Origin: Atopococcus sp.
Lineage (GTDB): Bacteria > Bacillota > Bacilli > Lactobacillales > Carnobacteriaceae_A
DNA: 64,000 nucleotides
NCBI GenBank assembly: GCA_043424615.1
Contig: JBHWOX010000009.1
Coordinates: 1,629 to 65,628, forward strand
Reading direction: 5' to 3'
Part shown: piece by piece, positions 21,814-55,095 of the stretch
How positions within the stretch are numbered: the stretch's first letter is position 1
How the letters are laid out: each line of letters opens with the position of its first letter
Notes under the pieces: model-generated
Told to the model about the DNA's origin: nothing
The model's input: the letters and a program-made list of their open reading frames with translations, nothing else
Database searches by the model: none
Program-made: the position numbers and the translations under genes

Positions 21814-22707
21814 TTAATCTAAATTGAGCCAGGTTTGGTAAATGTGTTTTTTCAAGCCTTCTTTATCCTTGATTTTCGGCAGGTTCAAAGCTGTCGTTTG
21901 CAGGGGTTTAGAAACCGCATAAGACGTCGGATCAAAATCATCCGCTATCAAAGAGCCTGACGATAAGGACTTCATGCTGACGGTGTAGTCATCGGGCTGG
22001 TCTTGAAAAAATTCTGGATTCACCAAGTAAGCCGCAGCTAAGGTATCCCAATTATAAAAGCCTTTGATGCCGTATTCAAGATCATTGTCTGTAAACCAAG
22101 GGTCAGAATAGTGGCGAATTAATTGGGCAATCGGGCCATCCGCACCGGCAAACATTTCTTCATATTGGTCGCGCGTGAAAAGCAAGTCCAAGCAGTTATT
22201 GCCGGTCATCAGGGAGATGCGAGGGGCCTTAGTTAGGGTCACATATGAAGCATTAGGGTCAACAGATAAATTGAGCTCCAACATCTCCTGCTTAGCAAAG
22301 ATCAAAGGTTCAGTGGTCCCTCCCATCAGCACCACTTGGTCCACTTTTTCAAAGAATTGCGGATCCAGCAAATAGGCACCGGCCAGGTTGGACATTCCCC
22401 CGGTCGCTAAAATAGAAATCTCTCCGGGCTGGGCAGCAATGCTTTGGCTAAGCGAACGGCTGGCGTCCGTTAAATAATCGCTGCATTCTGCCGCTCCCTT
22501 GTGGTAAAGCTGGGGATCTAGATCTAAGTCCTCCATCAAACGGCGGGTACAGCGGTCAACTTCTTCAATATTGGAATTACCAAAAGTCAAACTGATCCCA
22601 ACGACTTCGACATCCGGACTGCCCAAGAGATACATGAGGGCTAGGCCATCATCGACATCCCGATTAGTTGTATAGAAAGTATTATCGAAATCAATCCAGA
22701 CTTTCAT
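21814..22707 (-). CDS. Nucleoside hydrolase-like (IU_nuc_hydro fold) protein
   Basis: MKVWIDFDNTFYTTNRDVDDGLALMYLLGSPDVEVVGISLTFGN resembles the N-terminal Asp-cluster region of inosine-uridine nucleoside hydrolases, but the DxDxxxDD motif is interrupted. Its ATG directly abuts the TAG of the upstream radical-SAM gene. Confidence 0.65.
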   Translation of the reverse strand: MKVWIDFDNTFYTTNRDVDDGLALMYLLGSPDVEVVGISLTFGNSNIEEVDRCTRRLMEDLDLDPQLYHKGAAECSDYLTDASRSLSQSIAAQPGEISILATGGMSNLAGAYLLDPQFFEKVDQVVLMGGTTEPLIFAKQEMLELNLSVDPNASYVTLTKAPRISLMTGNNCLDLLFTRDQYEEMFAGADGPIAQLIRHYSDPWFTDNDLEYGIKGFYNWDTLAAAYLVNPEFFQDQPDDYTVSMKSLSSGSLIADDFDPTSYAVSKPLQTTALNLPKIKDKEGLKKHIYQTWLNLD

Positions 22708-23670
22708 CTAGAAGGCCTTCTCATCAATTTGGCCACCACAAGAAGAACCTGAACCAGCCGTACAGCCATAGCAATAATTACGGAAAACGATGTTACGCTC
22801 TAAGTCGTGGGCATCAACCACATCATAAATGGTGCGTTTGTCTTCGATCGGCAGGTTGCACATTTGGTTGAAGTCACAGTCATAAATCTGACCGTCCCAG
22901 CCAACGGATAATTGGAAGCGACACATCAAATTCGGCACGGTCTCTGGGTTGTAGGCTTCTTTTAAGAGGGCCATATAGTCGTCAAAAGAATCGGTCAAAT
23001 GCAAGAAGTTTTCAAAATAACCCAATGGCATGTTGGTGATAGTCACTAGATTAGTAAATTCAACACCCAAATCGCCTAAATGTTCTTTGTAATCTTTTTC
23101 TAATTGGGCTTGTTCTGGTGGGAGGTTGGCTCCTAGCGGGTTATGAACCAGATGCATAGGCAAGTCTTCGTCAACCCCATAACCGATTTCATTTAATTTA
23201 GCCATGGTGTTTACAATGCGGTCAAAAACTTTGTTTCCACGGATGCGGTCGGTATTGTCTTCGGTATAGCAAGGCATGGAAATAAAAATCGTACATGGGT
23301 ATTTTTCATAAAGTTCCAAAGTTTTCTTTTGTAGGAAAGTCGCATTGGTACGGATGATTAGCTCATCGATGTATGGATAGGCTTGTTCTACAAAATAGTG
23401 GAAGTCAGGGTGCATGGTTGGCTCCCCACCTGTAATATCTAGAGTATCGATTTCATCATGGTTTTTTAGAAACTCAATACAGGTGTCGATGGTTTCTCTC
23501 GACATAATCTCATTATGAGAGTCACGCATGACGTGGCAGTGTTTACAGCGTAAGTTACAAATTTTTCCAATATTCACTTGAAGAATATGGATCCCATCCG
23601 TCTGGCGGTATTCAGGATCAATATGTTCTTCAAAATTATTAACTAAAGCGGCGGGATTTTCATTGGTCAT
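22708..23670 (-). CDS. arsS: ArsS-type radical SAM / Cys-rich (DUF3641) domain protein
   Basis: LQVNIGKICNLRCKHCHV (CxxxCxxC). C-terminal CRFQLSVGWDGQIYDCDFNQM...FRNYCYGCTAGSGSSCGG matches my recollection of the DUF3641 domain of the ArsS family (TIGR04167). The preferred ATG is 23670, 8 nt after GGAG. Confidence 0.8.
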   Translation of the reverse strand: MTNENPAALVNNFEEHIDPEYRQTDGIHILQVNIGKICNLRCKHCHVMRDSHNEIMSRETIDTCIEFLKNHDEIDTLDITGGEPTMHPDFHYFVEQAYPYIDELIIRTNATFLQKKTLELYEKYPCTIFISMPCYTEDNTDRIRGNKVFDRIVNTMAKLNEIGYGVDEDLPMHLVHNPLGANLPPEQAQLEKDYKEHLGDLGVEFTNLVTITNMPLGYFENFLHLTDSFDDYMALLKEAYNPETVPNLMCRFQLSVGWDGQIYDCDFNQMCNLPIEDKRTIYDVVDAHDLERNIVFRNYCYGCTAGSGSSCGGQIDEKAF

Positions 23671-23851
23671 GGTCATCGCTCCTTCTTTTTTCAAAGTCTC
23701 GTGCTCATTCTACTATGTTTCACCTATACATTCTATCCAAATTAGCAAGGGGTTTATTAAATTAATGAATAAACAGCGGGCTTTTTGAATGATTTCAAAA
23801 AAACAAGCAGGGCTTTGAAAAGCCACTGCTTGTTTTTTTTATGTTTGCGGA

Positions 23852-25093
23852 TTATTCAGATGCGCGGTCGTCATCTAATTCGCCAACAGTTGTGTGAACC
23901 ACATCGTCTTGTTTAGGGTCTCCAACTTGAACTGGAAGTTCGTCATGCATTTGCCAGTCATTCCAGCTGCTGTCGAAGTGTAGAGGCTCATAGCCACGTT
24001 CGTACATCATCAACCAAGGAAGTGAAGAACGCCAAGCGGTTCCACAGTAAAGGGCAATCGGTTTGTCAATAGAGATGCCTTCATATTCCCACATAGCTAG
24101 AATTTCTTCGAAGTCTTTGTTGGTACCATCTTCATTTTTGTAGTCATCCATGCTGTTAGCATCAGACCCATTGGATCCTCTTAGGAGTGGACGACCCCAG
24201 TAAGCGCCTTCAGGTTCTCCAGCTTTTGGAATATAGCTGTAACCACTTTCGATTCCTCGCCATTCGTTTTCACTACGGATGGATACTAATTGGAAGTCTT
24301 CATCATTTTCTAAGCGATCCGCGGTATCTTCTAATGAAATGATGTATTCAGGATGGGCTGGAACAGCGACACCAAAGTCAGCTTCAGCCGGAGTAGGTTT
24401 GACTTCTTCACTTTCAGTTTCATAACCAGCATCTTCCCAGGCTTGTAAACCACCATCTAAGACTTTAACATTGTCAACACCTAGATAAAGAGCGGTAAAC
24501 GCAAAACGGTCGACACCAGTGTCTGGTCCGTAAAGGATTAAAGTCGTATCAGAAGTGACACCATAGTCTAAGAAGGCTTTTTCTAATTCTTCAGGACTTT
24601 TCACATTCCAAATAGGTCCTTCTTCAATAGCATCGGTGTTGAAGTGAGTAGCACCTGGAATATGTTTTTCAAGATAGTCTGGGCTGTCAGAAGCTTCTCC
24701 CCAAGTGACTTCAGCTAGGACATAGTTGCCGACATCTTCATTACCATCGATGACGTCTTTAACGTAGTCTGGAGTCACATAGACTTGTTTTTCGGGTTGA
24801 ACATCATTGATTTCTGTATCGGTAGAAGTGGGTACTGCTTCAGCAGTCGCCTCTTCACCACTGGCTTCAGATTCTTCTTCTGCTTTTTCTTCTTCTTGCG
24901 ATTCACTTTCAGCTGAGTCTGCTGATGATTCGCTACTTTCTTCTGTACTTTCTTCTGTACTTTCAGTAGTCGTATTGGCGTCAGATTCTGCTGAGTCTGA
25001 AGCTGTGCTTGAGCTTCCTCCTCCAGCACATCCGCTTAAGACCAAGACAAAAGCGACGAGTGCGGCTAACAAGATCGAGTATTTTTTCTTCAT
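23852..25093 (-). CDS. Surface lipoprotein with tandem rhodanese (sulfurtransferase) domains
   Basis: Signal peptide plus lipobox (LVLSGC), then an acidic Ser/Glu linker of about 70 aa, then rhodanese-like domains with an active-site loop YCGTAWRS (CxxxxR). Confidence 0.8.
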   Translation of the reverse strand: MKKKYSILLAALVAFVLVLSGCAGGGSSSTASDSAESDANTTTESTEESTEESSESSADSAESESQEEEKAEEESEASGEEATAEAVPTSTDTEINDVQPEKQVYVTPDYVKDVIDGNEDVGNYVLAEVTWGEASDSPDYLEKHIPGATHFNTDAIEEGPIWNVKSPEELEKAFLDYGVTSDTTLILYGPDTGVDRFAFTALYLGVDNVKVLDGGLQAWEDAGYETESEEVKPTPAEADFGVAVPAHPEYIISLEDTADRLENDEDFQLVSIRSENEWRGIESGYSYIPKAGEPEGAYWGRPLLRGSNGSDANSMDDYKNEDGTNKDFEEILAMWEYEGISIDKPIALYCGTAWRSSLPWLMMYERGYEPLHFDSSWNDWQMHDELPVQVGDPKQDDVVHTTVGELDDDRASE

Positions 25094-25395
25094 CTCTGAT
25101 TCCCCTTTTTCAAAATAGTTTATTGCTTATATAAAATAAGCCATCTTTAATTATAAAGCTTTGAAACATTTATTCCACTTTTGTTTATTAAGATATTTAA
25201 TAGCTAAAGCAAAGGTCTACCGCTTTGACAAAAGTTGGATTGACGGCTGTCAATCTTTATTTATTTACAAAAAATCTTACTCCCTAGCTTTTATTGACTT
25301 CATTGATAAATAAACAAAATAAGTGAATTTATTCATTTTTTTCTATAGGATGAAAGGCAATGACTATTAAAAAAAATATATTGATGGAGGTTACA

Positions 25396-26709
25396 ATGAA
25401 GATTAAGAAGTTATTATCCTATTTATCTCTTGTGTTTGTTGCTGTTCTTGTTCTAGTCGGATGCGGCCAGTCTAGTGGTGGTGGGGAAACGGCTAGCAGT
25501 ACGGATAGTGGCTCATCAGATAGCAGCAGCCAGGAAGTGAACGAAGAAAGCCAAGATGAAAATGTGGCTGACCTGTCTTTTGACGAATTAGTAGAAGCGG
25601 CTGATGGAAGCACCGTCTCTTTCTATGGTTGGGGTGGGGATGAAGCCCTCAACCAATGGCTGGATAATGTGTATGCTCCAGCGCTCAAAGAAAAATACAA
25701 CATCACCTTAGACCGTGTCCCTATGGATATTGAAGATGTCTTAAACCAACTCTCCAATGAAAAACAAGCGGGAGAAACTGAAGGGCCTATCGACATGATC
25801 TGGATCAACGGGGAAAACTTTGCAACCGCTCGTGACAACGACTTCCTTTATGGTCCTTTCACAGAGCAACTCCCTAATTTCCAAGACTATGTCGATGAAG
25901 AAGACCCTGAAATCAAATACGATTTCGGCTACCCTATCGAAGGCTACGAAGCCCCTTATGGTAAAGCCCAATTCGTCCTCATCGGCGATAAAGAAAAAAT
26001 GGACCAAGCGCCGGCCAATGCCCAAGAATTTTTGGAATATGCCCAAGCCAATCCTGGCCAAGTGACTTATCCAGCTTTGCCTGACTTTACGGGATCAGCT
26101 TTTGTTCGTAACATTATCTATGAATTTGTCGACCCAGCTGAATTCCAAGACATGGAAGCAGACAAAGAAGTGGTAAGAGAAGCCATTGCTCCTGCTTTTG
26201 ATTACTTGCGTGATTTGAACCCTCACTTGTGGAATGAAGGGCAAACCTTCCCTCAAGACCAACCGCAATTGAACAATATGTTTATGGACGGCGAATTAGC
26301 CTTAACCATGACTTATGGTGCTTTTGATGCAGCCATTGGTATTGAAAACGGCGAATACCCTGAAAGCGCTCAGACCTTTATCTTCGATAATGGAACAATC
26401 GGTAACACTAACTTTATCGGTATTGCCAATAACTCCACTAACAAAGCGGGGGCCATGGTAGCGATCAATGAAATGTTGTCACCTGAAATGCAGTTATCCA
26501 AATACGAAGAACTCAGAACCATTCCTGTTTTAGATAACGATGCTTTAGATGAAGACCAACAAGCAGCTTTTGATGCCGTTGATCCAGGACCAGGAACTCT
26601 TCCTCAAGACCTTCTTTTAGAAAACCGCTTGCCTGAAATGCCGGCTCATCTCGTGCCGATCATTGAAGAATTATGGTTAGAAGAAGTCGTTGGCCAAACT
26701 AATGAATAA
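25396..26709 (+). CDS. ABC transporter substrate-binding lipoprotein (possibly YnjB-like)
   Basis: MKIKKLLSYLSLVFVAVLVLVGC is a lipobox. ATG 25396 follows GGAGG. Mature-protein features: VSFYGWGGDEALNQWLDN... The family call is tentative. Confidence 0.75.
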   Translation: MKIKKLLSYLSLVFVAVLVLVGCGQSSGGGETASSTDSGSSDSSSQEVNEESQDENVADLSFDELVEAADGSTVSFYGWGGDEALNQWLDNVYAPALKEKYNITLDRVPMDIEDVLNQLSNEKQAGETEGPIDMIWINGENFATARDNDFLYGPFTEQLPNFQDYVDEEDPEIKYDFGYPIEGYEAPYGKAQFVLIGDKEKMDQAPANAQEFLEYAQANPGQVTYPALPDFTGSAFVRNIIYEFVDPAEFQDMEADKEVVREAIAPAFDYLRDLNPHLWNEGQTFPQDQPQLNNMFMDGELALTMTYGAFDAAIGIENGEYPESAQTFIFDNGTIGNTNFIGIANNSTNKAGAMVAINEMLSPEMQLSKYEELRTIPVLDNDALDEDQQAAFDAVDPGPGTLPQDLLLENRLPEMPAHLVPIIEELWLEEVVGQTNE

Positions 26710-26788
26710 TCTGATTTAATTCAAAGGAAAGGGGACTGTGACCCAGGTCATGGTCCTTTTCTGTTTTTAACCATTGAAAGGAGGACCT

Positions 26789-27670
26789 ATGAAGGCATCG
26801 AAGTTCAAAGTCAGCCTCTTGCTTTTCCCTCAGCTTTTAATTTCTATATTCCTAATGACTGGGGTCATTTATGGTCTCATCCAAGGTTTAGGTTATATTC
26901 CTGCTTTGAGTATGACCGACTGGACGCTGGACTACTACATCCAAAGCATACAAGACCCCAACACCCTGCGGAGCATTTTATTTAGCTTATGGATTGCTTT
27001 TGCCTCCAGTGTTTTATCAGTCTTGATTGGTCTTTTTATTTGTTACTTATTCATCAACCAAAAACACTATCCCAAATGGGTTCAAGCGCTGATTCAGATT
27101 CCTATCATCGTTCCCCATATTATCGTGGCCCTTTTTGTCATCCAAATCTTGAGCCAGACCGGCATCCTCGCCCGCCTGCTGTATGTCATCGGTTTTGAAA
27201 ATGCCCAGCAAATAGTGTCTGGCTGGCTGTTTGACCCTCAAGGTAAAGGCGTCATCCTTGCTTATTTGTGGAAAGAAATTCCTTTTATCGTTTTTTTCTG
27301 TTTTAGTTTGATTCGGCAAATTAACGGCTCTTTAGGTGAAGCCGCCCAGACCTTGGGAGCGAACCGCCTGCAGGCTTATGTGCACGTGACTTTACCCCTC
27401 TGCCGGCAAACCATTTTGACCTCCTTCTTTATTATTTTTATGTTTACTTTTGGGGCTTATGAGCTGCCCGCCATTTTAGGGCCGACCTTGCCACAGAGCA
27501 TTGCTGAAGCTACTTATATCGCTTATACCCATCCCGATTTAAAACAACGACCTTTCGCTATGGCCATGAATGGTTGGATTTTTATCATTAGTTTGGGAAT
27601 GGCGCTCTTATTTGCCTTTTTCATCTACCGTAAAAAACCAAGCCATAAACAAGGAGGTCAAGATGGATAA
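26789..27670 (+). CDS. ABC transporter permease 1
   Basis: Six hydrophobic segments and an EAA-type loop (GEAAQTLGANRLQAYVHVTLPL). ATG 26789 follows AAGGAGGA. Confidence 0.85.
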   Translation: MKASKFKVSLLLFPQLLISIFLMTGVIYGLIQGLGYIPALSMTDWTLDYYIQSIQDPNTLRSILFSLWIAFASSVLSVLIGLFICYLFINQKHYPKWVQALIQIPIIVPHIIVALFVIQILSQTGILARLLYVIGFENAQQIVSGWLFDPQGKGVILAYLWKEIPFIVFFCFSLIRQINGSLGEAAQTLGANRLQAYVHVTLPLCRQTILTSFFIIFMFTFGAYELPAILGPTLPQSIAEATYIAYTHPDLKQRPFAMAMNGWIFIISLGMALLFAFFIYRKKPSHKQGGQDG

Positions 27671-28469
27671 AATAAAATACCGTTGGATCAATGGCGCCTT
27701 AGCCTTAGCTTTTCTCTTACCCATTTTTATCTTAGTGGTCTGGGCCTTCACTGCTCGCTGGCCTTGGCCCCAGCTTTTTCCTCAAGAATGGACCTGGCGG
27801 GGCTTCAGCCAGTTATGGCAACGCAATCAAAACTTTAGTCAGTTAATCTTTTCCAGTGTCACTCTTTCCCTTCTGGTCGCTTTTTTATCCGTCTGCATTG
27901 GCTTTCTCACCAGCCGGGCCTATCTGATGGTTGAAAAACGATGGGCCAGCCGTTTGATTTACGGCTTGGTTTCTCTGCCGTTTTTAGTTCCGGCGGTTGT
28001 TTTCGGCATGGGGATCCACCAACTCATGATCCGCCTAGGCTGGGCCAACACCTTTTTTGGGGTCATGCTGGCTCATCTGGTCTATTCACTGCCCTATGCC
28101 ACCTATTTAATCCTGGACGCCTACCAGTCCTTTGGTTTCCGCTATGAAGAACAGGCTCGTATTTTAGGGGCCTCCAGCTGGCAAAGTATCCGCCTGGTAA
28201 CCTGGCCCCTTTTATTGCCTGTGCTATCAACCAGCTTTGCCATGTCCTATGTGGTGTCTTTTAGCCAGTATTTCCTCACTCTTTTACTGGGAGGTGGCCA
28301 AGTCCAAACTTTTGCCCTGGTCATGTTCCCTTATTTACAAAATAATGACCGGACCATCGCCAGTAATTATGGCTTGCTTTTCCTCTTGATCACCCTAGCT
28401 GTCTTTCTGATTTTCGAACGGCTGTCCGCCCACTATCAGAAAAAATACCAGCTGTCGTCTTATTATTAA
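27663..28469 (+). CDS. ABC transporter permease 2
   Basis: MDKIKYRWINGALALAFLL... with an EAA-type loop (EEQARILGASSWQSIRLVTWPLL). ATG 27663 follows AAGGAGG and overlaps the upstream stop by 8 nt. Confidence 0.85.
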   Translation: MDKIKYRWINGALALAFLLPIFILVVWAFTARWPWPQLFPQEWTWRGFSQLWQRNQNFSQLIFSSVTLSLLVAFLSVCIGFLTSRAYLMVEKRWASRLIYGLVSLPFLVPAVVFGMGIHQLMIRLGWANTFFGVMLAHLVYSLPYATYLILDAYQSFGFRYEEQARILGASSWQSIRLVTWPLLLPVLSTSFAMSYVVSFSQYFLTLLLGGGQVQTFALVMFPYLQNNDRTIASNYGLLFLLITLAVFLIFERLSAHYQKKYQLSSYY

Positions 28470-28479
28470 GGAGGTTTTT

Positions 28480-29544
28480 ATGTCGCTAGAAATCAATGAT
28501 TTATCCGTCTCTTTCGCTGACAAAAAAGTCTTACAGCAGATCAACTTAAAAGTCGAGAAAGGAGAGTTTATCAGCTTACTCGGCGCTTCTGGGAGTGGTA
28601 AAACCACCCTGCTCAAGTCCATCGCAGGCTTGGTGGATATTGACCAAGGGCAGATAAAAATTGATGGCCAAGCCATTGAAGGCAAAGAAGCTCAAGACCG
28701 CCACTTATCCTATGTCTTCCAAGACTTGCGCTTGTTTCCTCACTTGGATGTCTTTCAAAATATCGCCTTCCCTTTGAAAATGCATGCCATCGACCGAAAG
28801 CAATGGGAGGGGCGCATTGACCAGCTATTGGCTGATGTTCAAATGTCTGAATTCAAACACGCCAGCATCCAATCCCTATCCGGTGGCCAGCAGCAGCGGA
28901 TTGCCCTCGCTCGTGCCTTAGCCATCGAACCCCAGCTCCTCCTGCTAGACGAACCTTTTTCTGGTTTAGACGAAAATTTACGCTTTGAAATGGGTCAGTT
29001 GATTCAAGACTTGCACCGCAAGAACCAGCTCACCATCATCATGGTGACCCATGACAAAAATGAAGCCATTCATTATTCTGACCGGATTGCCATTTTGCAT
29101 GATGGCCTGATCCACCAATACGACCAACCTGAGCGATTAATCTACCAGCCCCAAGACCTATTTACCGCCCAATATTTCGGCCAGGTCAACCCGATTGACG
29201 GCCATGTCGAAGGACAGGCCTATCTTTCTGCTTGGGGGGAATGGCCGCTCGCTGAACAATGGGCTGGACAGACTGATTTGCTTGCCTTATTCCGTCCGAT
29301 GAACGCCCGCCTGATCCAAGATAAGCCCTTGCAAGAGGGGGAAGTCTTACTGCAAGCTCGCATCAAAGCCGTCCACCCTTCTACCCAACAGCTAATGTTG
29401 CTGGGTCAGCCCTTAAAAGGCGAAGGGGAATGGAGTTTTTTCATTGATAATACCCAAGATAATTACCGCCAAGACTGGCTAGACCAAACCATTGATCTGG
29501 CTGTCAACTTAGATGACTTGATTTATGTCTCTGCTCATTCTTAA
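28480..29544 (+). CDS. ABC transporter ATP-binding protein with a C-terminal regulatory (TOBE-like) extension
   Basis: Walker A GASGSGKTT, signature LSGGQQQRIALARAL, Walker B LLLLDEPFSGLD, H-loop VTHD. Confidence 0.9.
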   Translation: MSLEINDLSVSFADKKVLQQINLKVEKGEFISLLGASGSGKTTLLKSIAGLVDIDQGQIKIDGQAIEGKEAQDRHLSYVFQDLRLFPHLDVFQNIAFPLKMHAIDRKQWEGRIDQLLADVQMSEFKHASIQSLSGGQQQRIALARALAIEPQLLLLDEPFSGLDENLRFEMGQLIQDLHRKNQLTIIMVTHDKNEAIHYSDRIAILHDGLIHQYDQPERLIYQPQDLFTAQYFGQVNPIDGHVEGQAYLSAWGEWPLAEQWAGQTDLLALFRPMNARLIQDKPLQEGEVLLQARIKAVHPSTQQLMLLGQPLKGEGEWSFFIDNTQDNYRQDWLDQTIDLAVNLDDLIYVSAHS

Positions 29545-29590
29545 ATCTTTTTAGCCTCATTAGTTAGCTGAATAAAATAGAATGAAAACT

Positions 29591-29627
29591 ATAGAGGTTG
29601 TGCTGTTGTCACGACCTCTATTTTTTA
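29591..29627 (+). terminator. Terminator of the ABC operon
   Basis: ATAGAGGT...ACCTCTAT hairpin, followed by TTTTTT. Confidence 0.75.
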
Positions 29628-29705
29628 TGGTCAATGAGCTGGGTCAGTTTTTAGGCACTTTTCTTGCCTTGGCTCACATTTGCCAAGATTAAGCCTCGGT
29701 TTTTT

Positions 29706-29743
29706 TAAAATAAAAACGACCTGTCCCTATGAATGAACAGGTC
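29706..29743 (-). terminator. Terminator of the GrdB-like gene
   Basis: Minus strand: GACCTGT-(12-nt loop)-ACAGGTC, then GTTTTTATTTT. Confidence 0.65.
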
Positions 29744-29765
29744 ACTGATTTTTAATTTTAACTTT

Positions 29766-30491
29766 TTAATTGTATTTTGACGGACGATATTCTTCATCGC
29801 CACCGTCTAAAGCGAATTCTAACAGTTCCATCAATAATTTTTCATGCTTGTCTTTTTCATGCGCCTGGCCAAAGGTCAACCCTAAAGGAGCTTCAATGGT
29901 CAGCATGCGCGGCGGCCGTGTTTTTTCAGCTACCTTAGGCAAGTGCATAATGGAAGCCGTACGAATCCCTTTTTCTTCTACCGATCGCTGAATCTGTGCC
30001 ACAGATTGATGACAAATATATCAGCCCGGTGATAAGAGACAAATATCGACACCGTCTTGTGCCAGTGCTTCCGCCATTTCAGGAGCTGAACCTGTTCTTA
30101 AGCGGTTGACTTGGGGCATGTAACCCATCAAGCCATAATGGCGAGGAGCCACTGATCCAATAATCCCCCGGTCCGCAAATTCCCGCATTAAACCCAAAGG
30201 AAAAACCACATTCAGATCTTGGTCAGCATCTTCATGGTCATAGTGGGTATGGGTAATCATCAACTCTTCTTCTTTAGCGTCGCCAGGAATCATCCGGTAG
30301 CTATAGTCTCCATCGGTATTGAAGGGTTCTTCCGTTTTTAAATGAACCCCAGCTGTGGTAATGAAAGCCACTTTAGATTCGGATAACGGTTTTTTTACTT
30401 CAGCAATGGCCGGGGCTTCATCCACGGTACGCACCATGCGTTCTGCAATTTTTCCCCAAGCTTTTTCAATAATTCCACGTTTTTTAGCCAT
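29766..30491 (-). CDS. GrdB-family (glycine/sarcosine/betaine/proline reductase selenoprotein B-like) small protein; in-frame TGA at 30021-30023 (candidate Sec, UxxC)
   Basis: ORFs 30021-30506 and 29766-30002 are in one frame, separated only by the TGA: ...GVDICLLSPG-[TGA]-YICHQSVAQIQRSVEEKGIRTASIMHLPKVAEK...PLGLTFG... As I recall, this aligns with the U-x-x-C region of GrdB. Start ATG 30491 follows GGAGGGAGGA. Confidence 0.65.
29991..30007 (-). promoter_or_regulatory. SECIS-like hairpin 13 nt downstream of the in-frame UGA
   Basis: mRNA: UGA-UAUAUUUGUCAUC-AAUCUGU-GGC-ACAGAUU. A 7-bp perfect stem with a G-containing apical loop about 20 nt after the UGA. Confidence 0.4.
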
Positions 30492-30667
30492 AAATCCTCC
30501 CTCCATTTATTAAGTATTTTTATCTACAGGATTTGCAGTCCCTTACGAATTTTCTTAAGATTAAAACGGATTGCTTATTCATTCTAACAAAATAAAGGAT
30601 GGTTATTACTTTATATAAGCAATTTGATTTACTTATTAATTAAACAAATAAACAAAGGAGTAATGTG

Positions 30668-31558
30668 ATGACTTTATCTGATTATTTTGTAACGACCGAT
30701 TGGTTGGCTGACCATTTGGAAGATGAGGGGATCCGCATTGTGGATGCCAGCGTTATTTTTAATCCGGCAGCTGACGACCCTGCAGAAGTTTTACAATCTG
30801 GCCGTCCTGGCTATGAGGAGGGTCACATTCCAGGGGCTATCCATGCTGACCTTTTCCAGCTCAACCAAGCCGATGCTGACATTCCTTTCACCTTCACCGA
30901 TCCCCAAGCCTTCGCTGATGGGCTAGCAGATTTAGGACTGAGCGCTGACGATGACGCTATTGTCATCTATGACCGCTTGTCCATGGTGGGATTAGAAGAT
31001 AAATGCCAATTTTGGGCTTCACGTTTAGCTTGGCAAATGGCTCAAATCAGCTGGTCTAACTTTTATATATTAGATGGGGGCTTTTTCAAATGGCAAGAAG
31101 AAGACCGCCCTATCGAGACTGGCGAACACTCTTATCCCGCTCTTCCCCATCAAACCGTTGACCCTATCAATTTAAAAGCAGAAGAATCAGACGTCTTCGC
31201 AGCCATTGATAAGGATGACACCATTATTATGGATACCCTTCCTCCTGAACAATACCAGGGAGAAGTCGCTCCCTTTGGTGAGGAACATGCGGGCCATATT
31301 CCTTCAGCGATTAATGTTCACTACGGCTCTTTAACCAACAACCAAACCGGTGAATTGAAAGATGAAGAAAGTTTAAGAGAAATTTTCCAAGCAGCCAACT
31401 TGTTGGACGAAGACCAGCAGGTGATTAGCTATTGTGGTTTCGGTGTAGGGGCAACCTGGGTTCAATATGTCTTGAATGCTCTGGGGCAAGATCGGGTCAG
31501 CGTTTATGATGATTCCATGACTGGTTGGACCAACCACCAACAACCGATTAGCCGCTAA
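30668..31558 (+). CDS. Cytoplasmic tandem-rhodanese sulfurtransferase (SseA/3-MST-like)
   Basis: Two rhodanese domains (GHIPGAIHAD, GHIPSAINV). Active-site loop ISYCGFGVGATW. ATG 30668 lies 7 nt after AAGGAG. Confidence 0.85.
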   Translation: MTLSDYFVTTDWLADHLEDEGIRIVDASVIFNPAADDPAEVLQSGRPGYEEGHIPGAIHADLFQLNQADADIPFTFTDPQAFADGLADLGLSADDDAIVIYDRLSMVGLEDKCQFWASRLAWQMAQISWSNFYILDGGFFKWQEEDRPIETGEHSYPALPHQTVDPINLKAEESDVFAAIDKDDTIIMDTLPPEQYQGEVAPFGEEHAGHIPSAINVHYGSLTNNQTGELKDEESLREIFQAANLLDEDQQVISYCGFGVGATWVQYVLNALGQDRVSVYDDSMTGWTNHQQPISR

Positions 31559-32256
31559 TGTTTGTCTTGGCGGTAAAGGGCCTGTATCTTTTCAACATCT
31601 TCCCCCTGCCGGAATAAGTGTTGGCAGGTCTGCATGGTTTTTAAAGTTTTTAAATAACCGTTCTTTTCAAAACGACGGGCAGAAGTATAAATCTTTTGCT
31701 GGCTAGCGTAAATAGGCTGGCCAGCTTTTTTTACACGCAGAGAAAAATCATAATCCTCCATTAGGGCTAAGGACCTGAACCCTCCCATTTGCTGGTAAAA
31801 GTCGCGGGTCATAAACATCCCTTGGTCACCAAAAGCAATCTGTCGGTGCTTCAGCCGCCAATGGGACCCCCAAGCAATCCAATAGGCGAGGGGGTGGTGG
31901 CTAGTAAATTGAAGTCGAAAAGCCCCCATGGCATAGTCTTTTCCACCCAAAACTCGGCGAATTTCTTCCACGGGTGATTGTTTAAAATAAGTGTCTGCAT
32001 GTAAAAATAAAAGATAGTCGCCTTGACTATCTTTTACCCCTTGCTGGAGTTGTTGTCCCCGCCCTTTTTCAGACTGGCTGAGCTTGAACCCTGCTTGCTT
32101 TAACAGTTCAACCGTAGCATCCTGGCTGCCTCCATCCACTAGCAGGCATTCAACTCCTTCTTTTTCAAACACTTGCAAGCGTTGAAAAAGCACATCCAAA
32201 TTTTCAGCTTCGTTGTAAACGGGAATAATGACACTTAGAGATTTAGCTTCGGTCAT
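31555..32256 (-). CDS. Family-2 glycosyltransferase (candidate TIGR04283-type, ArsS-associated)
   Basis: LSVIIPVYNEAENL...VDGGSQDATVELL...LFLHADT. It is the last gene of the minus-strand operon. Its stop overlaps the convergent rhodanese stop by 4 nt. Confidence 0.8.
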   Translation of the reverse strand: MTEAKSLSVIIPVYNEAENLDVLFQRLQVFEKEGVECLLVDGGSQDATVELLKQAGFKLSQSEKGRGQQLQQGVKDSQGDYLLFLHADTYFKQSPVEEIRRVLGGKDYAMGAFRLQFTSHHPLAYWIAWGSHWRLKHRQIAFGDQGMFMTRDFYQQMGGFRSLALMEDYDFSLRVKKAGQPIYASQQKIYTSARRFEKNGYLKTLKTMQTCQHLFRQGEDVEKIQALYRQDKH

Positions 32257-33019
32257 GGTCGAGGTCCTCAGACTCTTGTTGGTCTATTATCTCTTCAGCG
32301 GCTTGTTTTTTCTTTTTATTGTTCATATAGCGTTCAATGATGACAGGAACCGTAGTAATTAAAATTAAAAGAATGACCGCAAAAACAAAGGACGGGCTGG
32401 TCACATCCATAGATTTATCCCCGATATTGACGTAGATAAAGGTCCCCGGCAGGATGAAGATCAAGGACAGGTAAAGATAGTCCCAGAATTTGATGTGCGT
32501 CAAGCCAAATAAATAATTTTCAACCGTATAGGGGATTAGGGGCACAATGCGCGCAAAGACTAAAAAACGCTTCAAATAGCTTTGGTTGGAAATTTTAGTA
32601 AAGGCGGCAGGATAGCGATTGGATAACCATTTTTGAATGGTATCACGGGCGAGATAGCGGGACATAAAAAACATGGTGATGAGGTTGAGGGCTGCTCCGA
32701 TGAAAGTATAGATGACCCCCCAAAAGAAGCCAAAACCCATCCCTCCCGTAATAGCCAGCAAGGGAACGGGGAAGAAGCCCATGGGTAAAAAGACCCAACA
32801 TAAGATATAGACAACGGGTCCCCAGGCTCCAGCAGATAAGATCAGATGGCGGATATATTCTGGTGAAGCATATCTAAAAATGACATAAGCAATAATCACA
32901 ATGAAAAGGCCGACAGCAATTTTTTTAAAGGGGATATTAATCCGCTTTTTGTTTTTTGTTTCGATCGTTCCAGACCTCCTTAACAATAAAGATAATAATT
33001 GATATAGAGAATAGGGCAA
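32243..33019 (-). CDS. TVP38/TMEM64 (DedA-related, SNARE-associated) membrane protein, copy 2
   Basis: Polytopic: ...GAWGPVVYILCWVFLPMGFFPVPLLAITGGMGFGFFWGVIYTFIGAALN... The start is uncertain. The ORF-track TTG at 33019 overlaps the upstream gene by 83 nt, and no good ATG/GTG follows the upstream stop. Confidence 0.65.
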   Translation of the reverse strand: MPYSLYQLLSLLLRRSGTIETKNKKRINIPFKKIAVGLFIVIIAYVIFRYASPEYIRHLILSAGAWGPVVYILCWVFLPMGFFPVPLLAITGGMGFGFFWGVIYTFIGAALNLITMFFMSRYLARDTIQKWLSNRYPAAFTKISNQSYLKRFLVFARIVPLIPYTVENYLFGLTHIKFWDYLYLSLIFILPGTFIYVNIGDKSMDVTSPSFVFAVILLILITTVPVIIERYMNNKKKKQAAEEIIDQQESEDLDHDRS

Positions 33020-33626
33020 TTAAACCGTAGAATAACCCTTTGGCACCACCAGCAAAGTTTTGACCCACATAGGAGTAAACGATGGTGGCCGGTGCTTGAC
33101 CGATCCCAGTAGCGATAATGAACGGCCAAAAGCCCATAGAGGTCAATCCTGCGGCATAGGACACAATATCAAAAGACATAAAAGGTAGTAAGCGGGAGAC
33201 AATGATGGCCCATTTCCCATATTTGTCGAAAAAGCCATCCAAAGACTGGAGGGCTCGCTCAGAGGTGAGGGAAACCACCACATCACGCCCCAAACCACGG
33301 GCAATGTAGAAGCATAAAGCAGCCCCCACCATGGAAGACGTCCAAGAAAGAAGGGCCCCCTGCCACCAGCCGAAGATTGCGGCATTCGCTAGGGTAATTA
33401 CAAAAGCAGGGATGGGTGAGACGATGGACTGGAGAATCATTAAAAAGAATGATACAACGGCGGCTGTTTTACCGTATTGTTGGAGGTATTCAACCACCCC
33501 GTCCAAGCCTTCAGAAGTTAAAGTTTGAACCGCTGTGTTGATCCACTCTCTCACACCAGGAATAAATAAATAAAGTAAGACCAGAGTAATGAGTATGCCT
33601 AGTGTGATTTTTTGATTTCGTGTCAC
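32937..33626 (-). CDS. TVP38/TMEM64 (DedA-related) membrane protein, copy 1
   Basis: Polytopic: ...SFFLMILQSIVSPIPAFVITLANAAIFGWWQGALLSWTSSMVGAALCFYIARGLGRD... Its GTG start shares GTGA with the stop of the upstream gene. Confidence 0.7.
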   Translation of the reverse strand: MTRNQKITLGILITLVLLYLFIPGVREWINTAVQTLTSEGLDGVVEYLQQYGKTAAVVSFFLMILQSIVSPIPAFVITLANAAIFGWWQGALLSWTSSMVGAALCFYIARGLGRDVVVSLTSERALQSLDGFFDKYGKWAIIVSRLLPFMSFDIVSYAAGLTSMGFWPFIIATGIGQAPATIVYSYVGQNFAGGAKGLFYGLIALFSISIIIFIVKEVWNDRNKKQKAD

Positions 33627-35143
33627 AGCAAGTCCTCTCCTTCTTTGATGTATGCTTTTATTTCTTCTAAAAATGGCAAGCTAATGAACCGCTCAATCAC
33701 CTGGGCGGTTTGGTCATCAGATTCTATTTTGGTTGATTCATGATTTTGCACATAGGCCATGGCACACCAGGTAATGCCTCTCAAGCAAGTAAATAATAAG
33801 TATTGGATTAATTTCGGCCGGTCAACGGGAACTTTGGCGTGCTGGTCATAAAGGTCGGCAAAGTCCATGACATCCTCAAAATCCAATAGGACATCGGTCT
33901 TCCAGAGGGTCGTGGTAGGAGCTAAGAAATGCCCTAAGTCCTGTTCTTTTTCACCTACTAAAGGTTTTTCCCAGTCAATCACATAGGATGACTGGCCCGG
34001 GTTGATTAAGAAATTCCCTGAGTTTAACTCGGTATTAATCACACAAGGGTCGGCAATGGGCGCTTCTAAATCAAAACGCTCTAAGCCGGCTAACATCTCT
34101 TCAATGGTGGAGACGACCTCTTCATCTCTATGCTCCCAAGCTTGATAGTGACTAAACATAGAGGTAAATTCGTCCATCATGACTTGGAAAGGGTGTTTGG
34201 CCCGAATCAAGTGGGGAATCTTCTGTTCATCGACTTGATGAATACTGGCCAATAATTCGGCTGCAATGGGCATATCCGTCCGATAATCTAGAGGGCGGCC
34301 ATCAAGAAATTCCTCCACCAAAAAGCCCTTGCCTAAGAGTTCAGTATGTTCGACTAATTCGAATACAGCAGGGACCACACCACTTTCATATAAGCCTTTT
34401 AAAGCATAATACTCATAATTAATCTGATTGTCCAAGCCCATCTGCGAGCCTAAAGCGATTCTAAGCAATTTATTACCATTATCTATAAGAAAATTAGCAT
34501 TGTATTCCCCTTGGCTGTGGAAGCGGGCTCCTAAATCTCCAGACAAGACCTTGGCAATATCTTCTCGATCATCAATGTCAATAATTTGTCCGACAGTGGC
34601 CGTTTGGTAGCCGGCTTTTTCCGTTAATTCAAGGGTCTGCTGGCAGACCTTATCATGAGAATAAGCGTCCAAAGCAAAAGATGCAGGAATGGGGCGATCC
34701 ATCCCAATTAAGCCAAAACCACCATCTAAAGAAGGGGTCAAGACCAGGTTGACTTGGTCTAAGCTTTCAAAGGCCTGGTCAATGATCTCTGTTGTCAGAT
34801 TGTACAGGTCAGATCCGACTAAGATGACTTTATCATATGATTTATTAAATATTTCCTCGAAGGCCGCCAACATTTGTGGGCCCAATTCTCCATCTAATTG
34901 ATAGTTAATATGGTCGGTTGAAATATCAAAAAAATCGGCCAAATCTTCCTTCTTTTGATCAGCTGGAAGGTAGTAATACAAGTCGGCTTGTTCATAAGAA
35001 GATAAGACCTGGAAGTTTTTTCGAGCCAAGTATTGGCTTAAATAATAAATTTCTTCCAAATTCAAAAAATTACGCAGGCGTGTTTTACCTGCTCCTAGTT
35101 CGGGAAATCTTAAAAAATAAATCATAGCGTTTGGCTGACTCAT
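33623..35143 (-). CDS. Fusion protein: N-terminal DUF2064/CofC-like nucleotidyltransferase (candidate TIGR04282) + C-terminal APH/choline-kinase-like phosphotransferase
   Basis: N-terminal: MIYFLRFPELGAGKTRL...KVILVGSDLYNL...VLTPSLDGGFGLIGMD. C-terminal: NANFLI.NGNKLLRIA..., GFLVEEFLDGRPL, INTELNSGNFLINP...YVIDWEKP (kinase catalytic-loop-like). The start could be 35143, 35158 or 35125. Confidence 0.7.
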   Translation of the reverse strand: MSQPNAMIYFLRFPELGAGKTRLRNFLNLEEIYYLSQYLARKNFQVLSSYEQADLYYYLPADQKKEDLADFFDISTDHINYQLDGELGPQMLAAFEEIFNKSYDKVILVGSDLYNLTTEIIDQAFESLDQVNLVLTPSLDGGFGLIGMDRPIPASFALDAYSHDKVCQQTLELTEKAGYQTATVGQIIDIDDREDIAKVLSGDLGARFHSQGEYNANFLIDNGNKLLRIALGSQMGLDNQINYEYYALKGLYESGVVPAVFELVEHTELLGKGFLVEEFLDGRPLDYRTDMPIAAELLASIHQVDEQKIPHLIRAKHPFQVMMDEFTSMFSHYQAWEHRDEEVVSTIEEMLAGLERFDLEAPIADPCVINTELNSGNFLINPGQSSYVIDWEKPLVGEKEQDLGHFLAPTTTLWKTDVLLDFEDVMDFADLYDQHAKVPVDRPKLIQYLLFTCLRGITWCAMAYVQNHESTKIESDDQTAQVIERFISLPFLEEIKAYIKEGEDLL

Positions 35144-35434
35144 CAATTCCTTTAGCACCTACCTTAATAAATATAATCATACTTCTCACATCTTAAGTAT
35201 ATCAGCTCATTTTCACAAGCTAGGGCTGGCTTGGAAGCCTTTGAATCATTATATTTTTTAATAAGTTTATTAATGGTCCTAATAACTTATCAGTCAGCCT
35301 GATAAAATTTGGGCATTTATAGATAATATTAATAGCCGTCAAAATTATATGGAAATAATGGTATAATGACCTTTGATAAAAATTTATCATGAACGTATCA
35401 AAGAAAGTAATATCAAAAGAATGGGCGTGAAAAT

Positions 35435-36355
35435 GTGGATTTAAAACAATTAGAAACTTTTATGACTGTGGTTGAGTGGGGAAGTTTTTCCGATGCTGCT
35501 AAACACCTATACTTATCCCAACCCACCGTTAGTGTCCATATCAAACAACTTGAAGATGAATTTGGTACCGAGCTCATTAAACGAACAACTAAAAGCATTG
35601 AGATGACCAAAGAAGGACGCGAATTTTACAGCTATGCCAAGTCCATCGCTGATATCATCGAAAATGCCAAAGACACTTTCTCCAACCAAGGATCCAAAAA
35701 CATTAACATCACGGCCTCTTCCATTCCTGCTTCTTATTTATTACCGAAGATTATTAAGGCCTATCATGATGAAGTACCGGATGCCTTAATTACCGTCGAC
35801 CAAACCGACAGTATCGACACTACTGACCAGGTCCTCAAAGGGCGCACCAATGTCGGATTTGTTGGCAGTGTCTCCATGAATAGTGACTTAAAATATGAAA
35901 AACTCTGTGAGGATAAATTAGTCTTAGTCGCCCCTTATAACGACTATTATTTAGCAAAAAAAGAAGGGGAAACCCCTATCGAAGAGCTCTTGACCGAACC
36001 CATCATTAAGCGGGAACAAGGATCAGGAACTTTAAAAGAAACCATCAAAATGCTGAATGCCATGCAGATTGACGAAAGTAATTTGGATGTTGTGGCGGTG
36101 GTGAATAGTAATGAAGCGCTGATTAATTATGTGAAAGCCGGTCTTGGTATTTCCGTTATCTCCGAAATAGCCGTCATGGATGATGTTCGCAAACATAACT
36201 TGATTGCGTTCGACATCGAAGAATTAGAATCCTACCGTAACTTCTACATGGTTACTCGTAAAAACTCTGTCTTATCCCATCAAATGGCTCATTTCATCAA
36301 CTTTTTACGCGACTATATTGAAATGGAAGAAGCCGAAACCGTTCAAGAAATCTAA
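35435..36355 (+). CDS. LysR-family transcriptional regulator
   Basis: (M)DLKQLETFMTVVEWGSFSDAAKHLYLSQPTVSVHIKQLEDEFGTELIKR (HTH) plus a substrate-binding domain. It is divergent from the DUF2064-APH operon. Confidence 0.9.
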   Translation: MDLKQLETFMTVVEWGSFSDAAKHLYLSQPTVSVHIKQLEDEFGTELIKRTTKSIEMTKEGREFYSYAKSIADIIENAKDTFSNQGSKNINITASSIPASYLLPKIIKAYHDEVPDALITVDQTDSIDTTDQVLKGRTNVGFVGSVSMNSDLKYEKLCEDKLVLVAPYNDYYLAKKEGETPIEELLTEPIIKREQGSGTLKETIKMLNAMQIDESNLDVVAVVNSNEALINYVKAGLGISVISEIAVMDDVRKHNLIAFDIEELESYRNFYMVTRKNSVLSHQMAHFINFLRDYIEMEEAETVQEI

Positions 36356-45838: not shown

Positions 45839-46786
45839 GTGGATGTAAAACAATTTGTTGATGAATCCGTCCAGTCGATTAAAGAAACCATCGGCGACAA
45901 AAGAGCCATTTTAGCTCTGTCTGGCGGGGTGGACTCATCGGTTTGTGCAGCCTTGGTTAGCCAGGCAATCGGCTCACACTTAACTTGTGTTTTCGTTGAC
46001 CATGGTTTATTACGCCAAGGTGAAAGAGAATCCGTTGAAGAAGTGTTCAACAACGAATTCGATGTGAATTTAATCGTTGTGGATGCTAAAGAACGTTTCC
46101 TATCACAATTGGTTGACGTTGAAGATCCCGAAGAGAAAAGAAAAATTATAGGTGAAGAATTTATTCGAGTCTTCGAGGAAGAACAAGCCCGATTAGCTGA
46201 CCACGATTTCTTAGTGCAAGGAACCATCGCTCCTGACATTGAAGAAAGCGGGAAAGAAGGCTCTAAATTAGTCAAAAGTCATCACAATGTGGGAGGCCTG
46301 CCAGAAGATGTAAACTTCGAATTGGTGGAACCCTTACGAGATCTCTACAAAGCAGAGGTACGGGCAGTGGGTCGTGAATTAGGTTTACCTGACAATATGG
46401 TGGACCGCCAACCTTTCCCAGGGCCTGGTCTAGGAGTTCGCTGCTTGGGTCCCATCACCGAAGAACGTTTGGATATTTTACGCCAGGCGGACTTTATTTT
46501 ACGTGATGAAGTAGCCAAAGCGGGCTTAGCTACAGAGGTCTGGCAATATTTTGCAGCCATTCCAGACTTCAAAGTCGTTGGTAAACTTGATGATGAACGT
46601 ACTTTTTCTTATCCTATCTTTATCCGAGCGGTTATCTCTGAGGATGCCAAAGAAGCCAGCTGGTTTGGATTCAGTGAAGATTTTCTAAGAAAAGTGTCTA
46701 AACGTATCACCGATGAAGTGCCTCAGGTGGTTCGCGTGCTGTATGATATCACTGACAAACCACCCGCTACCATCGAGTACGAATAA
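45839..46786 (+). CDS. guaA: GMP synthase ATP-pyrophosphatase + dimerisation domains only (no glutamine amidotransferase domain)
   Basis: ILALSGGVDSSV (PP-loop), KRKIIGEEFIRVFEEE, KSHHNVGGLP, RQPFPGPGLGVR, and it ends ...DKPPATIEYE. This is collinear with the C-terminal ~310 aa of bacterial GuaA. GTG start after GGGAGGAAA. Confidence 0.85.
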   Translation: MDVKQFVDESVQSIKETIGDKRAILALSGGVDSSVCAALVSQAIGSHLTCVFVDHGLLRQGERESVEEVFNNEFDVNLIVVDAKERFLSQLVDVEDPEEKRKIIGEEFIRVFEEEQARLADHDFLVQGTIAPDIEESGKEGSKLVKSHHNVGGLPEDVNFELVEPLRDLYKAEVRAVGRELGLPDNMVDRQPFPGPGLGVRCLGPITEERLDILRQADFILRDEVAKAGLATEVWQYFAAIPDFKVVGKLDDERTFSYPIFIRAVISEDAKEASWFGFSEDFLRKVSKRITDEVPQVVRVLYDITDKPPATIEYE

Positions 46787-52429: not shown

Positions 52430-52430
52430 C

Positions 52431-53339: not shown

Positions 53340-53352
53340 GACTTATTCCTCC

Positions 53353-54925: not shown

Positions 54926-55095
54926 CATTAACCTCCTCATCGAAAAGCCGTTGGCATCCGGATTGCTTTCACAATCGCTCTAGCATTTGCTAAAATAAGA
55001 GTAATCAAGTGGGCTTTAACTATTTCTAATTCGAACTAATAATATCAACTTCTTTTTAGTAAGTCAACCCCACACCCTTAGAAAGGATTTTTGTT

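Follow-up and report, generated by a model that had tools for sequence, protein, structure and literature searches.

The stretch of Atopococcus sp. DNA analysed here (64,000 nucleotides, contig JBHWOX010000009.1; hereafter the window) carries on its minus strand, at 30491..29766, a reading frame related to the GrdB/PrdB family of selenoproteins and interrupted by a single TGA. Is this codon the end of a shortened product, or is it decoded as selenocysteine (Sec)? We conclude, with a probability of about 0.88, that the frame is one intact selenoprotein gene whose internal UGA, at codon 157, is read as Sec. The gene is intact, its homologues have Sec or Cys codons in the same column, a hairpin is conserved behind the UGA, the surrounding gene cluster is conserved, and Sec machinery is present in the clade.

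The frame runs continuously from an ATG at 30491 to a TAA at 29768..29766, and the TGA at 30023..30021 is its sole internal stop. The two pieces recorded in the open reading frame (ORF) track, 30021-30506 and 29766-30002, lie in this same frame; sequence and translation bear out an earlier note on this DNA, made from the letters alone, which took them for one frame split only by the TGA. That note also placed the TGA in a U-x-x-C redox-type motif, and the translation gives U-Y-I-C, in the read-through context ...DICLLSPG-U-YIC-HQSVAQIQRSVEEKGIRT...; the peptide spanning codon 157 reads ...DICLLSPG-U-YICHQSVAQIQR. Coding sequence does continue past the TGA as had been claimed, for 84 sense codons and a stop rather than for 85 codons, and the layout is therefore 156 codons, UGA, 84 sense codons and TAA, with a product of 241 residues upon read-through. 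The true start is 30491 and not 30506, because a Shine-Dalgarno sequence, GGAGGGAGG, lies at 30504..30496; homologues begin at an equivalent MAK(K/R), which matches this start. Full-length matches (residues 1-241) were found with tblastn in Atopococcus and Facklamia.

A search of about 5.8 billion proteins yielded 125 relatives, and a scan of one genome per GTDB species yielded 80 homologous loci. The codon aligned with UGA-157 is TGA in 70 of the 80 loci and TGC or TGT in the other 10; TAA or TAG occurs in none (0/80). The TGA forms are spread over Bacillota, Acidobacteriota, Chloroflexota, Desulfobacterota, Gemmatimonadota, Nitrospinota and others, and both flanks of the column are conserved. 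Judged from these alignments, the alternation of TGA and Cys over many phyla follows the classical pattern of selenoprotein families, and it answers in favour of Sec the question, posed in the earlier note, of whether Cys or Sec occupies this column in homologues. Furthermore, U157 aligns with Sec345 of the GrdB from a grdX-grdE-grdB operon (LLSPG-U-YIC versus ILTST-U-GTC), the two proteins sharing 24% identity over 222 residues (E = 1e-13).

In protein databases, most relatives stop at ...SPG, after about 155-158 residues (e.g. Facklamia hominis, F. miroungae, Ammoniphilus, Salipaludibacillus). RefSeq calls fragments of 155-157 residues 'PrdB' or 'selenoprotein B family protein', with the Sec unmarked. 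The full-length database relatives carry Cys (three entries, GCPLCH, from Ktedonobacteria), Ser (two) or Trp (five) in the Sec column. The Trp entries bear on an alternative in which UGA-157 is decoded otherwise than as Sec, either as Trp under genetic code 4 or 25 or by leaky near-cognate read-through. Several entries do have W at this position, and one of them, P0129, is a 241-residue entry identical to the read-through product of the window with W at position 157. However, the DNA underlying the W entries is TGA on low-GC contigs (e.g. L014 for P0009) translated with code 4, and Trp at the Sec position is, from these comparisons, an artefact of code-4 gene calls (P0004, P0007-P0010, P0129). 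The natural alternative residue in the column is Cys, not Trp, and the clade carries tRNA-Sec, selA, selB and selD. Codes 4 and 25 were rejected for the window, where TGA is the ordinary stop of 5 of 49 ORFs; since the WalR and TrkH ORFs end at TGA where their family profiles end, UGA is not a Trp codon in this organism. We give decoding of UGA-157 as anything other than Sec next to no chance.

If UGA-157 is read as Sec, the codons behind it should be constrained as protein. The window was compared with L085 (83% amino acid identity), Atopococcus tabaci (L001 and L087, 79%) and L091 (74%). Over the 84 post-TGA codons of the closest relatives, the proportion of nonsynonymous differences (pN) is 0.10-0.18 and that of synonymous differences (pS) 0.69-0.88. 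The ratio of nonsynonymous to synonymous substitution rates (dN/dS) is 0.058 for the window and L085, 0.081 for the window and L001, and 0.021 for L087 and L001; these three values are those of the pairs with an estimable dS, the reported overall span being 0.02-0.10 with saturated synonymous change. The frame of the compared relatives shows 0 frameshifts and 0 extra stops behind the TGA. Between the TGA and GTG 30002, the earliest codon at which translation could restart, lie six codons; they specify YICHQS in all Bacilli, with varying third positions.

Two explanations in which the TGA is a true stop can be weighed on these data. In a nonsense pseudogene, only a 156-residue fragment, or nothing at all, would be made and the downstream frame would be decaying; the shortened products of 155-158 residues annotated by gene callers and RefSeq would agree with this, as would the lack of Sec machinery in the window. 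Against it stand the dN/dS values and the undamaged downstream frame, the retention of TGA in 70 of 80 loci across phyla with Cys always as the alternative, and the conserved hairpin that follows the TGA. The purifying selection on the downstream part therefore disfavours a nonsense pseudogene, the alternative that the earlier note had raised, and we consider it extremely improbable. In a split gene, a 156-residue chain ending at the TGA would assemble after translation with a 78-residue chain starting at GTG 30002, and a 78-residue ORF from the GTG is indeed called in every relative. However, no Shine-Dalgarno sequence precedes GTG 30002, Cys-form homologues are single chains of 238-240 residues, and the YICHQS segment, which lies between TGA and GTG and includes the invariant Cys of UxxC, is kept at the amino acid level while its synonymous sites vary. 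This conservation, taken with the selection on the post-TGA codons, therefore argues strongly against both alternatives, the decaying pseudogene and the split gene that yields two polypeptides, and the chance that we allow the split gene is minute.

Sec insertion in Bacteria involves a hairpin behind the UGA, the selenocysteine insertion sequence (SECIS). The hairpin of the window, AAUCUGU-GGC-ACAGAUU, begins 13 nt past the UGA and leaves a gap of 20 nt between UGA and loop; its 7-bp stem, coordinates and spacing are those that had been read from the sequence in the earlier note. A published model of bacterial SECIS elements (PMC13188914) comprises a loop of 3-9 nt with a G in its first two positions, a stem of 4-16 bp, a UGA-to-loop distance of 16-37 nt and a minimum free energy of -7.5 kcal/mol or less. 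The GGC loop, the 7-bp stem and the 20-nt spacing fit these rules, and the energy is borderline (-7.6 kcal/mol for 45 nt; -4.4 to -5.0 kcal/mol for the hairpin alone). Folded alone, the 17-nt hairpin reaches -4.4 kcal/mol with z = -4.2.

Comparison of 42 distinct U-x-x-C sequences revealed a family hairpin of 8 bp with the consensus AUCAAUCC-GUG-GGAUUGAU, in which columns 14-21 pair with columns 25-32. Pairing amounts to 92.6%, against at most 53.6% in slid controls, and the covariation score was reached by 0 of 500 shuffles. The pair 18-28 is A-U in 21 sequences and G-C in 18; it joins the third base of a Gln codon to the first base of a Leu codon, so that its changes are both synonymous and compensatory. 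In the clade of the window, Gly-Leu has been replaced by Ala-Gln and the hairpin has moved to +16..+32, one register from the family hairpin. L091 retains the shifted hairpin in the same register through a double change from U-A to C-G, and in A. tabaci the hairpin takes yet another form, with a stem of 7 bp and a loop of 17 nt. As these alignments suggest, a hairpin is maintained at the post-UGA site while the sequence that forms it is remodelled.

Sec machinery is encoded near the orthologous gene in Facklamia. Five genomes (L003-L006, L016) have tRNA-Sec 5-8 kb downstream of it (about 15.8-18.9 kb in locus coordinates), where the orthologous cluster ends, and in F. languida tRNA-Sec is followed by a SelD with its own Sec (ICGG-U-NAK) and then by YedF. 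Facklamia (4-6 selenoproteins), Dolosigranulum, Alloiococcus and several Enterococcus have been recorded as Sec-using Lactobacillales (Peng et al. 2016, PMC5029168, Table S2). The remark in the earlier note that Sec decoding would be unusual in this order is thus correct in that the trait is uncommon there, and overlooks that it had already been documented.

Closer to the window, a SelB search was seeded from Atopobacter sp. AH10, in which the locus order is selD-yedF-selB-selA. It found a SelB annotated from an A. tabaci metagenome-assembled genome and an Atopococcus-clade SelB, P0282, which is 73% identical to it. On the contigs with P0282, the gene order is tRNA-Sec, selD(U), dsrE-like, Se/S-carrier, selB, selA, GT4, grdA(U), two genes, grdX, grdE, grdB(U); these contigs form the probable sel/grd island of the window's organism (Table 1). 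Gene callers cut all three selenoprotein genes of the island (selD, grdA and grdB) at the TGA. The hairpins of its grdB (ACGUUGC-GGU-GCAACGU at +14), selD and grdA are of the same type as that of the window, with a small stem and a triloop that begins with G.

Across strains and species, three locus/SelB pairings run in parallel (Table 1): P0282 occurs with a 99% variant of the window locus, P0370 with pieces identical to the window, and P0284 with an 83% relative. Because of these pairings, it is very likely that the window's organism owns the co-occurring sel operon. The selA, selB, selD and selC genes, whose presence the earlier note had proposed to check, are accordingly found as an Atopococcus-clade operon that co-occurs at strain level, and none of them in the window itself; the operon is present in an NCBI assembly as well. 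The GC content of the sel contigs (39.7-42.6%) is compatible with that of the window (43.2%) and not discriminating. A search with the SelD of F. languida gave mostly other Lactobacillales among the best 120 of 8000 matches, and none of these could be assigned to the window's organism.

As to the family, the best NCBIfam model is TIGR04483 (PrdB), with 192.5 bits against an equivalog cut-off of 300 (profile positions 14-216 of 238). Pfam GRDB (PF07355) is passed with 38.7 bits against a cut-off of 22, over profile positions 210-344 of 347 only, the C-terminal third. The NCBIfam models of selenoprotein B tested were TIGR01917, TIGR01918, NF040794 and NF040795. The 'various selenoprotein B' subfamily model TIGR01918 gave 42.2 bits against a cut-off of 65.45, and the GrdB/GrdF/GrdH models remained far below theirs (34.4 versus 602, 56.6 versus 775 and 41.1 versus 800).

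One may ask whether the protein is a genuine D-proline reductase PrdB, or the GrdB of a glycine, sarcosine or betaine reductase, serving amino-acid reduction of the Stickland type. The best NCBIfam match, the PrdB-like size of 241 residues and the UxxC motif would favour this, and in RefSeq the fragment from Facklamia bears the name 'D-proline reductase (dithiol) PrdB'. However, the scores lie under the cut-offs of PrdB, of TIGR01918 and of every GrdB/GrdF/GrdH model, and no PrdA, PrdC-F, GrdA, GrdE or GrdX was found among window ORFs of at least 150 aa. Nor were prd genes found among the syntenic genes seen in the loci of relatives: the conserved neighbours are DedA, ABC transporter, rhodanese, ArsS and glycosyltransferase genes. 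In addition, the candidate host has a separate, canonical grdX-grdE-grdB/grdA operon on another contig. A genuine amino-acid reductase subunit is therefore very unlikely. Because the NCBIfam cut-offs are missed and no prd or grd partner was found among these ORFs, the protein is best described, from its sequence, as a stand-alone, PrdB-sized branch of the GrdB/PrdB superfamily that is neither PrdB nor GrdB proper. The assignment to the GrdB/PrdB family in the earlier note stands at the level of the Pfam family and fails at that of the equivalogs and their partner subunits.

An AlphaFold2 model of a Cys-form homologue, P0034, was obtained with a mean predicted local distance difference test score (pLDDT) of 93.8 and a predicted TM-score (pTM) of 0.91. 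Cys138, which corresponds to the Sec position, lies between a strand (131-135) and a helix (139-154), with the partner Cys in the first turn of this helix. In the model, such a geometry for Sec157 and Cys160 suits a redox pair. A sequence search of the PDB with E up to 0.01 gave no match.

Several results weigh against the conclusion that this is a Sec-decoding gene of the GrdB/PrdB superfamily. No selA, selB, selC or selD lies within the 64-kb window, and the only tRNA gene there is tRNA-Val. The link to the sel operon is a strain-level co-occurrence in metagenome runs and not a shared assembly accession. The window hairpin folds weakly by itself (-4.4 to -5.0 kcal/mol), and its register differs from that of the family consensus; the 45-nt stretch, at -7.6 kcal/mol, does not differ significantly from shuffles (z = -0.05), and an Rfam scan of 29700-30600 with E up to 10 found no SECIS and no other credible family. 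Because of this fold result, our hairpin claim rests on comparative data, not on energy. Finally, the fold offered no lead to the function: a Foldseek comparison of the P0034 model with the PDB gave no match at E up to 0.001; the best had E = 0.007, and all TM-scores were below 0.4.

If the gene is a selenoprotein gene as we propose, UGA-157 would be recoded by the standard bacterial route: the hairpin within the coding sequence would recruit SelB carrying Sec-tRNA(Sec) to the ribosome and, after insertion of Sec, translation would run 84 codons to the TAA, ahead of the intrinsic terminator. Sec157 and Cys160, where a helix begins, would act together as a selenol/thiol redox pair of the U-x-x-C type, with Sec157 in the column that the catalytic Sec occupies in GrdB. 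If the analogy with GrdB and PrdB holds, Sec would act as the nucleophile on the substrate, and Cys would resolve the adduct as an Se-S bond to be re-reduced later. D-proline is an unlikely substrate, and glycine is likewise disfavoured, because no PrdA, GrdA or GrdE is encoded nearby. From the gene context and the known chemistry of GrdB and PrdB, we infer that the protein may act as a reductase in a pathway handling a chalcogen or arsenic (Se, S, As).

The gene lies within a cluster that spans 21814-36355 (Table 1). The rhodaneses and the ArsS-type enzyme that the earlier note had seen beside it are present, the latter above the cut-off of TIGR04167. The majority of these genes are found again in Atopococcus, Facklamia and Tissierella creatinophila, though with gaps. 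Of the partners of the PrdB-like gene, only the YdjZ-like and YnjBCD-like ones remain in Bacillus and Neobacillus, and in other phyla its context is different. The Facklamia cluster additionally encodes a YdjY-domain protein, a thioredoxin of the ResA type and a CcdA/DsbD-like protein. As listed, the two ABC permease ORFs of the window (26774-27670 and 27570-28469, plus strand) overlap by about 100 bp; the listed start of the second is probably too early, because the Logan gene calls are shorter (293 and 268 residues).

Table 1. Coordinates of the selenoprotein gene, its signals and its neighbours in the window, and sources of the sel operon and of related loci
Feature	Position or source	Strand	Basis
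PrdB/GrdB-family (PF07355) selenoprotein coding sequence, stand-alone	29766..30491	-	frame, Pfam GRDB, full-length homologues, dN/dS
UGA, codon 157, predicted to be read as Sec	30021..30023	-	TGA or Cys in homologues; aligned with GrdB Sec
Cys160 codon TGT, partner Cys of U-x-x-C	30012..30014	-	column invariant in all homologues shown
SECIS-like hairpin AAUCUGU-GGC-ACAGAUU, 7 bp, GGC triloop	29991..30007	-	folding and L091 compensatory change
Shine-Dalgarno GGAGGGAGG	30496..30504	-	read from sequence, 5' of ATG 30491
Intrinsic terminator, 12-bp stem and T-run, 20 nt past the stop codon	29715..29746	-	sequence
Nucleoside hydrolase-like, directly downstream of ArsS	21814..22707	-	weak NCBIfam matches; Pfam IU_nuc_hydro on identical gene in L081
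ArsS-type radical SAM enzyme, Cys form, no in-frame TGA	22708..23694	-	TIGR04167, 360.7 bits vs cut-off 300
YnjE-like multi-domain rhodanese	23852..25093	-	38% to E. coli YnjE over 300 residues; NCBIfam rhodanese matches
YnjBCD-like ABC transporter (binding protein, two permeases, ATPase)	25360..29544	+	NF008633, 453.9 bits
Two-domain rhodanese, divergent neighbour	30665..31558	+	Pfam Rhodanese, 99.8 bits; syntenic in Atopococcus L001, L002
TIGR04283-family GT2 glycosyltransferase (NCBIfam name: arsenosugar biosynthesis)	31555..32256	-	246.7 bits vs cut-off 182
Two VTT/DedA-family membrane proteins (YdjX-like 32243-33019, YdjZ-like 32937-33626)	32243..33626	-	Pfam VTT_dom
TIGR04282 nucleotidyltransferase-like (DUF2064) and APH-type kinase fusion	33623..35158	-	TIGR04282, 143.4 bits vs cut-off 134; Pfam DUF2064, APH
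LysR regulator, NCBIfam 'selenium metabolism-associated'	35435..36355	+	NF040786, 323.5 bits vs cut-off 250; 80% identical, syntenic in Atopococcus
Probable sel/grd island of the window's organism	L101 1371-14870 (Logan SRR11482318); also L102-L104, L107-L109		
SelB P0282	runs SRR11482318, SRR11482333 and two others		
99% variant of the window locus (P0001)	SRR11482318, SRR11482333 (longest contigs)		
SelB P0370 (99% to P0282; in NCBI and Logan; longest contig 137.8 kb)	SRR11913448, SRR11482348, SRR30645920		
Window-exact PrdB-like piece P0126	SRR11913448, SRR11482348, SRR11482339		
Window-exact lipid kinase	SRR30645920 and others		
SelB P0284 (80% to P0282)	ERR12743343		
83% PrdB-like relative P0002	ERR12743343		

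The cluster could be read as an undescribed pathway, conserved in several Bacilli and related to the E. coli ydjXYZ-ynjABCDE genes, in which the protein would be a selenium-dependent reductase rather than an amino-acid reductase, on a route to a selenosugar- or selenolipid-like metabolite. An Se, S or As species would be imported by the YnjBCD-like transporter and carried on the rhodaneses, and ArsS would couple the chalcogen or metalloid to a 5'-deoxyadenosyl group. After trimming of the adduct to a sugar, the kinase/nucleotidyltransferase fusion would activate it and the GT2 enzyme would transfer it; the DedA proteins would then flip it to the other side of the membrane. A selenium-responsive LysR would control all of these steps. 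We put this forward tentatively, with the odds clearly against it. Our search of the literature on ydjXYZ/ynjB-E with selenium and on the TIGR and DUF identifiers found no functional study of the cluster.

Other features of the window lie outside this cluster. A guaA-like ORF at 45839-46786 (plus strand) covers only profile positions 196-512 of GMP synthase, the ATP-pyrophosphatase part; it lacks the glutamine amidotransferase domain at its N-terminus and borders directly on trkA, which lies on the opposite strand, and the gene may be split or truncated. Two very large surface proteins are encoded, a leucine-rich-repeat adhesin of 1824 residues (37208-42682, minus strand; HupY/LrrG-like, 385 bits, below cut-off) and a PspC-related protein of 1212 residues (1375-5013, plus strand). 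At 51830-54940 (minus strand), two MhqD-like carboxylesterase genes surround two glyoxalase-fold genes, in what looks like a quinone or aromatic detoxification operon. For the first ORF of the window, no record was found. Beyond the 3' end of the window, some 6-8 kb from its tRNA-Val end, a near-identical contig (L095 1-4100) carries rpmH, rnpA, yidC and jag followed by dnaA and dnaN, which places the locus near the replication origin.

Part of this is known ground. Recoding of UGA through SECIS elements in the GrdB/PrdB superfamily is established, as is the use of Sec in Lactobacillales, and 'proline reductase' homologues (e.g. from Anaeromyxobacter and Geobacter) were counted in an earlier selenoproteome survey (PMC1794560); the deep-Sep paper does not mention the PrdB-like family. 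What is less ordinary is that the family is routinely mis-annotated as fragments, that its product does not conform to the known kind of reductase subunit and that its partners point to an uncharacterised pathway. Gene callers and RefSeq record the gene and its relatives either as a fragment of about 156 residues plus a stray 78-residue ORF or with a false Trp; once the Sec codon is recognised, the annotation can be put right for a family spread over many phyla. The gene also adds the Atopococcus-like Carnobacteriaceae lineage to the short list of Sec-using Lactobacillales. Finally, the cluster offers an entry point to function, as it joins E. coli ydjXYZ-ynjABCDE genes, ArsS-type enzymes and a selenium-associated regulator.

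Among the closest known counterparts of the protein is PrdB, the selenoprotein subunit, of 26 kDa, in D-proline reductase (Kabisch et al. 1999, as cited in PMC13188914). The two are similar in size (241 residues versus a profile of 238 positions), and both have a UGA-encoded Sec in U-x-x-C with a hairpin inside the coding sequence; the UxxC motif of the PrdB family and UGA/SECIS recoding in the GrdB/PrdB superfamily are textbook matter (PMC13188914). In contrast to PrdB, the window locus has neither the PrdA pro-protein (pyruvoyl subunit) nor prdC-F nearby, and the conserved neighbours are entirely different. With GrdB, GrdF and GrdH, the B subunits of glycine, sarcosine and betaine reductases, it shares the Pfam GRDB match and the aligned Sec column. 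However, only the C-terminal half of their architecture of about 430 residues is present (profile positions ~210-420), some 200 N-terminal residues being missing; the motif is UxxC-H-Q-S where GrdB has UxxCxxC, and no GrdA, GrdE, GrdC or GrdD is found near the gene.

The surrounding genes resemble two other known sets. One is E. coli ydjXYZ-ynjABCD-ynjE, whose homologues in the window share 53% (YdjZ), 31% (YdjX), 36% (YnjB), 32% (YnjD) and 38% (YnjE) identity with their counterparts; the Facklamia version adds YdjY (53%). The E. coli cluster differs in having the AhpD-like CxxC protein YnjA and in having no PrdB-like gene, ArsS or glycosyltransferases. Clusters of Bacilli have the UxxC selenoprotein where E. 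coli has YnjA, and we speculate that the two might be functionally equivalent. The other is the ArsS-type arsenosugar set: TIGR04167, TIGR04282 and TIGR04283 are all found above cut-off in the neighbourhood, and the nucleoside hydrolase and the kinase domain would fit a pathway in which an activated sugar is made from a 5'-deoxyadenosyl adduct. Genes for arsenic resistance or arsenic methylation were not seen in the window. What sets the window apart from the arsenosugar set is the association of these genes with rhodaneses, a selenoprotein and a selenium-associated LysR, to which Facklamia adds tRNA-Sec, SelD and YedF.

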